DNA from: a virus
Lineage: Duplodnaviria; Heunggongvirae; Uroviricota; Caudoviricetes
IMG/VR virus record: IMGVR_UViG_2541047898_000011
Direction: 5' to 3' (one strand)
Length of the DNA stretch: 12,185 nucleotides
Shown here: positions 7,026 to 7,907 of the stretch, piece after piece
How positions within the stretch are numbered: the stretch's first letter is position 1
How the letters are laid out: every line of letters starts with the position of its first letter
Translations under genes and position numbers: made by a program
Notes under the pieces: model-generated
The model's database searches: none
What the model was told of the DNA's origin: nothing
What the model saw: only the letters and a program-made list of their open reading frames with translations

Positions 7026-7063
7026 ATGCGATATACGCAAGTAATATTTTGCGAGATGTGCAA
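7026..7063. promoter_or_regulatory. Putative oL operators and pL region (two 15 bp sites)
   Basis: ATGCGATATACGCAA (7026-7040) and TTGCGAGATGTGCAA (7049-7063) share the pattern TGCG-N7-GCAA with a site in the cI/cro intergenic region; located just beyond the cI terminator. Confidence 0.45.
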
Positions 7064-7071
7064 AATTATGG

Positions 7072-7097
7072 GTGATAAAAAGCCACCTTTCGGTGGC
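7072..7097 (-). terminator. Rho-independent terminator downstream of the repressor gene
   Basis: gccacc-tttc-ggtggc hairpin followed on the minus strand by TTTTTA, 20 bp after the cI stop. Confidence 0.5.
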
Positions 7098-7117
7098 CGA
7101 TGGATGGGATATTGAAG

Positions 7118-7810
7118 TTAATTATGTCTCTTAAGGGTTTGCGACTGACTGATTAAGACCTTTCCAAAGACCATGAATCGGTGTTCGTTTTCGCTAGTAA
7201 TTCCCCATTCACGGTAAATCTGGTTATCAGAAATCACCAGCAGTTTGTCAGGAATCATTTGAAGTCTTTTAACGTATATTTTGTCATCAAAACCAAAGAC
7301 ATATATACCATCACCATCAAACTGATTGATGCTGACATCAACGAAGATGAGATCTCCTGGCTCAATGGTTGGACACATACTGTCCCCACGAACGTTGATA
7401 ACTTTGATGTGATTGGCTGGTCGTCCGCCGAACATTGATACAGCATTATCAGTTCTGTATTCGATGGCATGAATCACATCAATGACATCACCGCCCTGGA
7501 TAAGGCCATTTCCCGCACTGGCACTGATATCCAACATTTCAATACGGAACACATCCTTCACCTGCGCAACATCCTCATCATTACTGTTTTTATATACAGT
7601 ATTACTTTTGAGGGCAGAGGTAAAGAGATCAGCAATATCAACACCTAAGCTCTTGGCAATATTACTCAGTGTTTGTTCGGTAAATTGTTTCTGCTTACCC
7701 GTTTCTAAGCGCGAGATGTTCGCCGCATCTACTCCTATTGCTTCAGCGAGATCGGCGATTTTCATGTTCTTCGCTTGGCGAAGTTGTCTGACTCGTTTTC
7801 CTATGTTCAT
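7118..7810 (-). CDS. cI-like prophage repressor (HTH XRE domain plus S24 LexA-type peptidase domain)
   Basis: 230 aa; N-terminal HTH (IADLAEAIGVDAANISRLETG), Ala-Gly site in SASAGNG, GDSM serine and a downstream lysine (VKRLQ); no SD before the ATG, consistent with a leaderless transcript. Confidence 0.85.
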   Translation of the reverse strand: MNIGKRVRQLRQAKNMKIADLAEAIGVDAANISRLETGKQKQFTEQTLSNIAKSLGVDIADLFTSALKSNTVYKNSNDEDVAQVKDVFRIEMLDISASAGNGLIQGGDVIDVIHAIEYRTDNAVSMFGGRPANHIKVINVRGDSMCPTIEPGDLIFVDVSINQFDGDGIYVFGFDDKIYVKRLQMIPDKLLVISDNQIYREWGITSENEHRFMVFGKVLISQSQTLKRHN

Positions 7811-7907
7811 GCGTTTATTACATTTCTTTATTGCGTGATAAGCAAATCAACTTGCGCAAAATACTTGCGTGAAATAACATGCATAACGCGCAATATTTGG
7901 AGGATAT
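7811..7907. promoter_or_regulatory. Divergent promoter/operator region between repressor and cro-like gene
   Basis: TTGCGTGATAAGCAA (7831-7845), palindrome TTGCGCAA (7852-7859), CGCAAaatacTTGCG (7855-7869); SD GGAGGA at 7898-7903 before the cro ATG. Confidence 0.55.

Follow-up and report, generated by a model that had tools for sequence, protein, structure and literature searches.

Positions 7005 to 7943 of the viral record IMGVR_UViG_2541047898_000011 (Caudoviricetes), which we analysed as a whole stretch of 12,185 bp (hereafter the window), can with good confidence be read as a lambdoid immunity switch, carried by a prophage of the SfII / ST64B / mEp460 immunity type. This confidence applies jointly to the whole explanation, including its operators, its promoters and a leaderless start of the repressor gene cI. 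The locus combines a helix-turn-helix (HTH) repressor carrying an S24 peptidase domain, a divergent small HTH gene of the cro kind followed by cII, and the same dyad on both sides of cI. This dyad overlaps the right promoter (pR) and the repressor promoter (pRM), both placed from orthologous transcription start sites (TSSs), as well as a predicted left promoter (pL).

Between 6850 and 8200, the window matches the cI-cro-cII region of Shigella phage SfII at 96.8% identity; cI, cro, cII and a terminator are all annotated there in the SfII record, and the CI of the window is 98.7% identical to that of SfII. Against coliphage mEp460 and several Stx2-converting phages, identity over this stretch is about 90%, and DNA identity over cI-cro is 90-97% for the SfII / mEp460 / Stx2a_WGPS2 group. 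SfII has five sites as in the window. Among 5426 complete E. coli genomes, 1040 carry the immunity region. Three strains match the window with 100% identity.

Putative operator sites and their conservation

The putative operators, on the left (oL) and right (oR) of cI, and the genes that they accompany are as follows.

7026-7040: putative oL operator S1, ATGCGATATACGCAA, 19.8 bits; its right half is the predicted pL -35
7049-7063: putative oL operator S2, TTGCGAGATGTGCAA, 21.0 bits; centre-to-centre distance from S1 of 22-23 bp
7081-7098, minus strand: intrinsic terminator of cI, between the cI stop codon and oL; a terminator is annotated in SfII
7118-7810, minus strand: cI repressor, 230 residues, with an N-terminal HTH_3 domain and a C-terminal Peptidase_S24 (LexA-like) domain
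7831-7845: putative oR operator A, TTGCGTGATAAGCAA, 20.1 bits; its right half (7840-7845) is the predicted pRM -35 TTGCTT
7879-7893: putative oR operator B, ATGCATAACGCGCAA, 16.5 bits; spans about -7 to +8 of pR
7899-7903, plus strand: Shine-Dalgarno (SD) sequence GGAGG of cro
7908-8168, plus strand: cro-like gene, 86 residues, HTH_3; divergent from cI and labelled cro in SfII
7929-7943: candidate operator C, GTGCGTAAGGCGCAT, 10.3 bits; within cro codons 8-12, 50 bp from B
8161-8712: open reading frame (ORF) after cro, with a match to the CII family Phage_CP76

Scores in bits refer to a weight matrix that we derived from 11 relatives (CI 66-96% identical; 40 sites), leaving out the window and the near-identical SfII/Shigella copies. 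When the window was scanned with this matrix, S2, A, S1 and B came first, C came next, and everything else remained at or below 6 bits. The core TGCG-N6-GCA occurs in exactly five places in the 12,185 bp, all of which are the named sites between 7026 and 7943. An earlier, sequence-only reading of this DNA had pointed out three of them, and the 15-bp sites at 7026-7040, 7049-7063 and 7831-7845 are indeed present. Its formula, wTGCG-N7-GCAA, needs correction: the spacer is N6, and the symmetric form of the 15-bp sites is TTGCG-N5-CGCAA. Its set of sites was also incomplete, as the search for further copies that it had proposed, made over the entire window, added 7879-7893 and 7929-7943, which it had overlooked. 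The central AT that it described holds in the window and the close clade but not across the family: among the 40 sites, position 8 is A or T in 39 and position 9 is T in 28, and the rest of the centre is variable. From these comparisons we derive the consensus wTGCG-N5-yGCAA, which would be bound by CI and presumably also by Cro.

Three copies of TGCG-N6-GCAA are present in the window where 0.78 are expected (at least three in 8 of 200 shuffles), and TTGCG-N5-CGCAA with at most one mismatch is likewise found three times, against an expectation of 0.81 (9 of 200 shuffles reach three). When two mismatches are allowed, the window shows no enrichment (9 matches, 9.1 expected). The significance of the motif therefore lies in its location and conservation and not in its raw count.

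We followed this conservation across 13 immunity regions whose CI is 66-99% identical to that of the window. They comprise the phages ST64B (CI 82%), two Klebsiella phages (about 70%), Citrobacter phiNP (68%) and Stx2a_WGPS2 (96%), together with eight chromosomal prophages (66-99%) from Shigella, Citrobacter, Pseudescherichia, Klebsiella, Trabulsiella and Buttiauxella. Matrix matches recur at constant offsets from the cI ATG (-778, -755, +28, +76 and +126), and these offsets are kept in Salmonella, Klebsiella, Citrobacter, Trabulsiella and Buttiauxella prophages while the sequence between the half-sites is variable. Site A is present in 13 of 13 relatives at +28/+29, as is site B at +76/+77 with scores of up to 23.5 bits; S1 keeps its relative position in 12 of 13, and two sites 7-9 bp apart are found just past the cI terminator in most relatives. 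Starting from cI, the common order is CAT (the cI start), 6-7 variable nucleotides, ATTACA, site A (TTGCG-N6-GCAA), an invariant ACTTGCGCAA, TAAyAT, site B (ATGCr-N5-yGCAA), and finally the SD and ATG of cro. The recognition-helix region of CI, VDAANISRLETGKQK, is kept in all relatives having the same half-site. The heteroimmune controls e14, BTP1 and PhiR34_1 gave no matrix match in their own immunity regions, and in e14 the equivalent places are taken by another repeat (GGTACA).

One of the relatives, a Pseudescherichia metagenome-assembled genome (L012), has neither oL site nor a normal cro start. It carries a strong extra operator-like site, TTGCGCGTTACGCAA (21.2 bits), at +920 from the cI ATG, about 0.9 kb to the right of cI. 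This prophage may be rearranged.

Variation over short evolutionary distances marks out the same half-sites. A scan of IMG/VR returned 80 loci with CI 99-100% identical to that of the window which, because they are near-identical, add no phylogenetic depth. Over the 58 bp of oL (7021-7078) these loci display 47 haplotypes and 30 segregating sites, with a mean per-site diversity of 0.096, compared with 0.0035 in the cI coding sequence (CDS), 0.0064 at cI third-codon positions and 0.008 in the adjacent pL leader. Changes are confined to position 1, the central positions, the inter-site spacer (6, 7 or 8 bp long) and the right flank, and TGCG (7027-7030, 7050-7053) and GCAA (7037-7040, 7060-7063) are invariant in all 80 loci. 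These unchanged letters amid a hypervariable oL are, at the level of sequence, an independent footprint of the half-sites. The changes are mostly exchanges between A and G, and all four gametes are seen for 69 of 153 pairs of oL sites. Sites A, B and C are near-invariant in the same loci, centres included (A identical in 79 of 80, B in 77 of 80).

A second hot spot in the 80 loci is the spacer that separates the cro SD from the ATG (7904-7906): each of its three bases has a diversity of about 0.45, there are at least eight variants of the spacer, and Cro translation may be tuned in this way. Taken with the non-contacted bases of oL, this spacer shows about 15 times the diversity of cI third-codon positions. 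On a tentative reading, both are mutational or selective hot spots at the population level, by which pL strength and Cro translation could be rapidly tuned among otherwise identical prophages.

Site C lies inside cro and is found at +126/+127 in 12 of 13 relatives (10-19 bits). In nine non-redundant cro genes, the codons that cover it are fixed: TTG for Leu8 (6/6), TCG for Ser11 (6/6) and CGN for Arg9 (9/9). Other Leu, Ser and Arg codons of cro vary freely, and of 35 comparable positions only four are monomorphic, two of them in site C. The clade of the window has replaced Leu8 by Val (GTG) and Ser11 by Ala (GCG), and the core nucleotides (xTG, xCG) are nevertheless retained. The site also persists in two relatives whose cro is broken (L012 and L013). 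We regard C as a probable auxiliary operator, and grade it only so because it is absent from Stx2a_WGPS2 and weak in the window. A less favoured explanation, which still carries some weight, is that C is not an operator and owes its conservation to the N-terminus of Cro (LRKSH / VRKAH) or to an mRNA hairpin near the cro start. This would agree with its position in coding sequence, the conserved amino acids, a 7-bp hairpin detected there by the terminator scan, its chance-level score in the window (10.3 bits, with 0.6 such matches per shuffle) and its absence from Stx2a_WGPS2. It accounts poorly for the synonymous choices that are fixed exactly at the operator core, for the two amino-acid replacements that spare this core, for retention of the site where cro is disrupted, and for the identity of the conserved letters, which are those of the half-sites TTGCG/CGCA and not of any complementary pair.

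Predicted promoters and the probable leaderless cI start

The promoter elements that we assign to the switch are listed below.

Minus strand: predicted pRM, with -35 TTGCTT (7845-7840), a 17-bp spacer, -10 TGTAAT (7822-7817) and +1 at A7810
7808-7822, minus strand: leaderless cI start, with -10 TGTAAT (7822 to 7817), AAACGC and ATG (7810 to 7808); predicted TSS at A7810
7852-7857, plus strand: predicted pR -35 TTGCGC, within the invariant palindrome TTGCGCAA (7852-7859)
7875-7880, plus strand: predicted pR -10 TAACAT, conserved as TAAyAT; predicted start near A7886
7012-7040, minus strand: predicted pL, with -35 TTGCGT (7040 to 7035), a 17-bp spacer and -10 TATCTT (7017 to 7012); start near 7005

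The orthologous TSSs were mapped by Ramachandran et al. (2012; PMC3293720, supplement 2) in the ST64B lysogen S. Typhimurium SL1344, by differential RNA sequencing. In this dataset, TSS P1160 at 2072244 is the first base of SL1344_1967 (CDS 2072244-2072939), corresponding to a 5' untranslated region of 0, and has read counts of 59 and 218 and the promoter sequence CTTGCGCAAGTTGATTTGCACAATGCGCAAAAAATTAATGTAATGAACGCA, ending TGTAATGAACGCA (PMC3293720). On the strand opposite cI, TSS P1159 has the promoter sequence CATTGTGCAAATCAACTTGCGCAAGTTTGCTGTATGAAATAACATGCGATA, ending AACTTGCGCAAGTTTGCTGTATGAAATAACATGCGATA (PMC3293720, supplement 2). Both promoter sequences are those of the ST64B cI-cro intergenic region, where pRM reads TTGCAC-17-TGTAAT-6 nt followed by AUG, and pR reads TTGCGC-17-TAACAT. 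The ST64B locus (sb38/sb39, SL1344_1967) is a true orthologue of that of the window, with all five sites at equal relative positions; it differs in its pL -10 (TGTAAT, where the window has TATCTT) and in the region to the right of cro. Since the intergenic sequences of the window and ST64B align without gaps, and a single base differs between the -10 and the ATG, the mapped starts can be carried over to pRM and pR of the window.

The sequence-only reading had further proposed that the repressor ATG at 7810 has no SD, is preceded by TGTAAT at -12 to -7, and belongs to a leaderless transcript of the pRM type. On the minus strand both features are as described, and ATG 7810 is the first start codon after an in-frame stop. 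The leaderless transcript itself is well supported by the ST64B orthologue (82% amino-acid identity), whose TSS falls on the A of the AUG, and by the arrangement CAT, 6-7 nt, ATTACA, which is kept in 14 of 14 relatives with variable intervening nucleotides that never form an SD. Site A covers -21 to -35 of pRM.

On the pR side, ACTTGCGCAA is invariant in 14 of 14 relatives, and in ST64B it is followed, 17 bp downstream, by the -10 of the mapped pR. The +1 of P1159 coincides with position 8 of site B, that is, with its centre. For pL, the -10 (AAGATA on the plus strand) is conserved in the relatives and invariant in the 80 loci.

The additional half-sites noted earlier at 7852-7869 exist as letters, namely TTGCGCAA and TTGCG at 7865-7869, but do not hold up as operators: TTGCGCAA is a lone half-site, readable on either strand, and not a full operator, and TTGCG at 7865-7869 is conserved only in the SfII/Citrobacter clade. 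We considered a middle, lambda-like operator at 7852-7866 (TTGCGCAAAATACTT) and rejected it as a conserved site, given its 0.6 bits in the window and its unconserved right half; this 15-mer reaches 10-14 bits only in the Klebsiella phages Kp4873-4 and P7641, in a Citrobacter amalonaticus prophage (L011) and in L012. An overlapping site at 7845-7859, centred at -42 of pRM, is perfect in L011 only and was rejected for the window. The oL/oR layout that had been expected is thus borne out at oL, with its classical pair, and not at oR, where B and C had been missed and the arrangement is not lambda-like. The distances are 48 bp between A and B and 50 bp between B and C. The pattern of lambda, 434 and P22, with three tandem oR sites spaced by about two helical turns and a pRM-activating oR2, was not found, and no conserved oR2-like site is present.

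Proposed switch and alternative readings

The CI translation matches HTH_3 over residues 7-62 (Pfam, E 1e-11) and Peptidase_S24 over residues 104-218 (E 6e-19), and displays the motifs of self-cleavage: Ala-Gly (ASAGNG), Ser in GDSM and Lys in VKRL. In the switch that we propose, CI, and presumably Cro by means of its own HTH, would recognise the five dyads. S1 covers the -35 and spacer of pL, with S2 just upstream, and a cooperative pair of dimers would shut pL. Because B lies over the pR start, bound repressor would block this lytic promoter, excluding RNA polymerase and silencing cro and early-right transcription. Site A, over the -35 and spacer of pRM, would serve in negative autoregulation by CI and in shut-off by Cro; we assign it this oR3-like role because its geometry is the same as that of S1 at the predicted pL. 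Site C, at +43 to +58 of pR, would be a weaker auxiliary site acting as a roadblock or as a cooperativity partner of B. The transcript from pRM would start on the A of the cI AUG, so that a lysogen would make its repressor from a leaderless mRNA devoid of an SD. Induction would proceed through RecA-stimulated self-cleavage of CI, as the S24 domain and its Ala-Gly, Ser and Lys motifs indicate. Were A, B and C to cooperate, with one another or with oL at a distance of 0.78 kb, the DNA would have to bend or loop, which is speculation. We infer binding, the assignment of proteins to sites, the pL start and the role of C from the lambdoid paradigm.

Several observations weigh against this picture. 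Motif counts alone are just 3- to 4-fold above chance. Stray matches of 14.3 and 15.9 bits in about 22 kb of control DNA cover the range of B and C, and matches of at least 10 bits arise 0.6 times per shuffled window; because both scores fall within the range of stray matches, the case for B and C rests on their positional conservation, and C sits in coding sequence and has been lost in Stx2a_WGPS2. A generic sigma-70 scan of 6600-8400 returned no promoter at threshold, the named hexamers being weaker matches, and we therefore assigned promoters from the orthologous TSSs. Those TSSs belong to an 82%-identical orthologue in Salmonella and not to this prophage, and the start of pL near 7005 is a prediction from the sequence alone. 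An upstream TSS in ST64B implies that leadered cI transcripts may also exist. The spacings of 48 and 50 bp are not integral helical turns, so lambda-style pairwise cooperativity between A, B and C is not obviously available. Finally, in the searchable literature we found no binding evidence on phages of this immunity type.

We entertain only tentatively the stronger claim that the switch is architecturally distinct from that of lambda. The features that could make it so are the dispersed oR operators (48/50 bp), the codon-maintained site in cro, the use of the lone half-site TTGCGCAA as the pR -35, the lack of a pRM-activating site, and the rapidly evolving positions of oL and the cro spacer. 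If this were true, repression would work through a higher-order CI complex that loops or wraps, or through a roadblock, and not by cooperativity of adjacent dimers.

It is rather improbable that the operators are real and the site-by-site lambda logic is wrong, such that only one HTH protein acts at some of them (for example Cro at A and C) or that higher-order CI requires oL-oR looping. The 48- and 50-bp spacings and the missing oR2-like site would suit such a scheme, as would the behaviour of the middle 15-mer, which scores high in some relatives only. CI and Cro also have no detectable pairwise similarity (BLASTP of the CI N-terminal domain against Cro gave no alignment). However, both proteins are HTH_3, and the sequence offers nothing by which sites of CI could be told from those of Cro. 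CI and Cro share their operators in every lambdoid switch characterised so far.

We give very little credence to the idea that the TTGCG/GCAA repeats are mere parts of promoters (TTGC-type -35s at pL, pRM and pR) and the 15-bp dyad is incidental: three copies do coincide with -35s (the right half of S1 at pL, the right half of A at pRM, and TTGCGCAA at pR), and the counts by themselves are weakly significant, but no -35 hexamer falls at the other three sites, which lie over the pR +1 (the centre of B), upstream of the pL -35 (S2) and within cro (C). The two half-sites also keep their 15-bp span in every relative, around variable centres, and heteroimmune phages have a different dyad at the same locations.

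Similarly hard to credit is a cI that is leadered, through a pRE-like promoter upstream or read-through, or translated from Met16 (7765). A second, weaker ST64B TSS, P1161, does lie on the cI strand at 2071952, 292 nt upstream of cI (PMC3293720), and is pRE-like and antisense to cro. Its read counts are 8 and 4 against 59 and 218 for the leaderless TSS, and we found no counterpart of this promoter in the window. As for Met16, the records of phiNP (L005, 1546-2196) and Stx2a_WGPS2 (L006, 1546-2193) begin cI at this internal codon. The N-terminus MNIG.R.R.LR is conserved in all relatives, HTH profiles begin to match at residue 7 (HTH_3) or at residues 3-4 (others), and a start at Met16 would consequently delete HTH helix 1. 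Together with the orthologous leaderless TSS, these data indicate that Met1 is the true start and that the Met16 records would truncate the HTH. The spacing of -10, 6 nt and ATG, free of an SD throughout the relatives, points the same way.

Relation to other phages and neighbouring features

In its design, this is an ordinary lambda-like CI/Cro switch with somewhat unusual site spacing, the operators themselves being putative. As in lambda, an HTH and S24 repressor gene diverges from cro, dyads on both sides of cI overlap pL, pR and pRM, and the maintenance transcript starts from the A of the AUG: the lambda pRM reads TAGATT-TAACGT-ATG (-10, 6 nt, ATG), and here we find TGTAAT-AAACGC-ATG. The operator differs in being a 15-bp site of another sequence, with two sites at oL where lambda has three. 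Whereas the three oR sites of lambda stand in tandem about 24 bp apart, those described here are dispersed, one of them in cro, and no conserved site occupies the pRM-activating oR2 position. Here oL also lies about 0.78 kb from oR, and CII is of the CP76 type. An extra repressor site inside or beyond a cro-like gene is known from TP901-1 (OD), r1t (O3) and HK022 (O_FR). Repressor families, oligomeric states and distances differ, and the likeness to site C serves as a lead only.

Leaderless repressor mRNAs have precedents, as the prophage repressors ymfK (e14), dicA (Qin) and racR (Rac) are experimentally leaderless in E. coli K-12 (PMC4681348). Prophage e14 shares with the window the cII (ymfL) module, a pL-leader element and the spacing of -10, 6 nt and ATG (TTTAAT-TTCGTT-ATG). 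It differs in its YmfK immunity type and its GGTACA-type repeat on both sides of ymfK (L002, 6170-6262 and 6930-7030). We accordingly rejected e14 immunity for the window, because the repressor and operators differ even though the cII/ymfL module and pL leader are shared. In the searchable literature we found no functional operator study of SfII, mEp460 or Stx2a_WGPS2 and no description of operators of the SfII/ST64B/mEp460 type, and the leaderless status of ST64B appears there only as a row of a supplementary table. A sequence search of the PDB returned no close solved homologue (top match ClgR, E 8e-5), and Rfam gave no match within the immunity region. In ST64B, peroxide and NO induce the non-coding RNA STnc1310 (D23580) as well as two genes that follow cI.

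Beyond pL, the minus strand holds a leader element of about 65 nt (about 6861-6925) that is common to SfII, e14, ST64B, phiNP and a Buttiauxella prophage, phages whose immunity regions differ. Its RNAalifold consensus has 16 pairs, four of them with compensatory changes, and it has no match in Rfam. N and cIII have not been reported in SfII-like phages (PMC3851460), and a cis-acting role is worth considering for this reason: the element could be an antitermination or regulatory RNA in N-less phages. By Pfam and PHROG assignment, no N-like gene is evident in the leftward operon. The first ORF of this operon (6630-6851, minus strand, 73 residues) contains a ClpX-type C4 zinc finger (Pfam, E 1.4e-10) and falls in a PHROG of unknown function. 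Farther into the early-left region (5252-5475, minus strand), Rfam gives a match to the sRNA STnc100 that stays below threshold (43.4 bits, gathering score 47, E 8e-7).

This immunity type is present in about one fifth of complete E. coli genomes, in Shigella serotype-converting phages, in some Stx2a phages and in Salmonella ST64B. With an operator consensus, a promoter map and a leaderless start, its immunity groups would become predictable from sequence, and cI starts mis-annotated at Met16 could be corrected. The sites would also offer targets for induction and immunity experiments in Stx and serotype-converting phages. Its wider interest lies in the dispersed oR with an operator inside cro and in the hypervariable oL; otherwise, it would be another CI/Cro switch.

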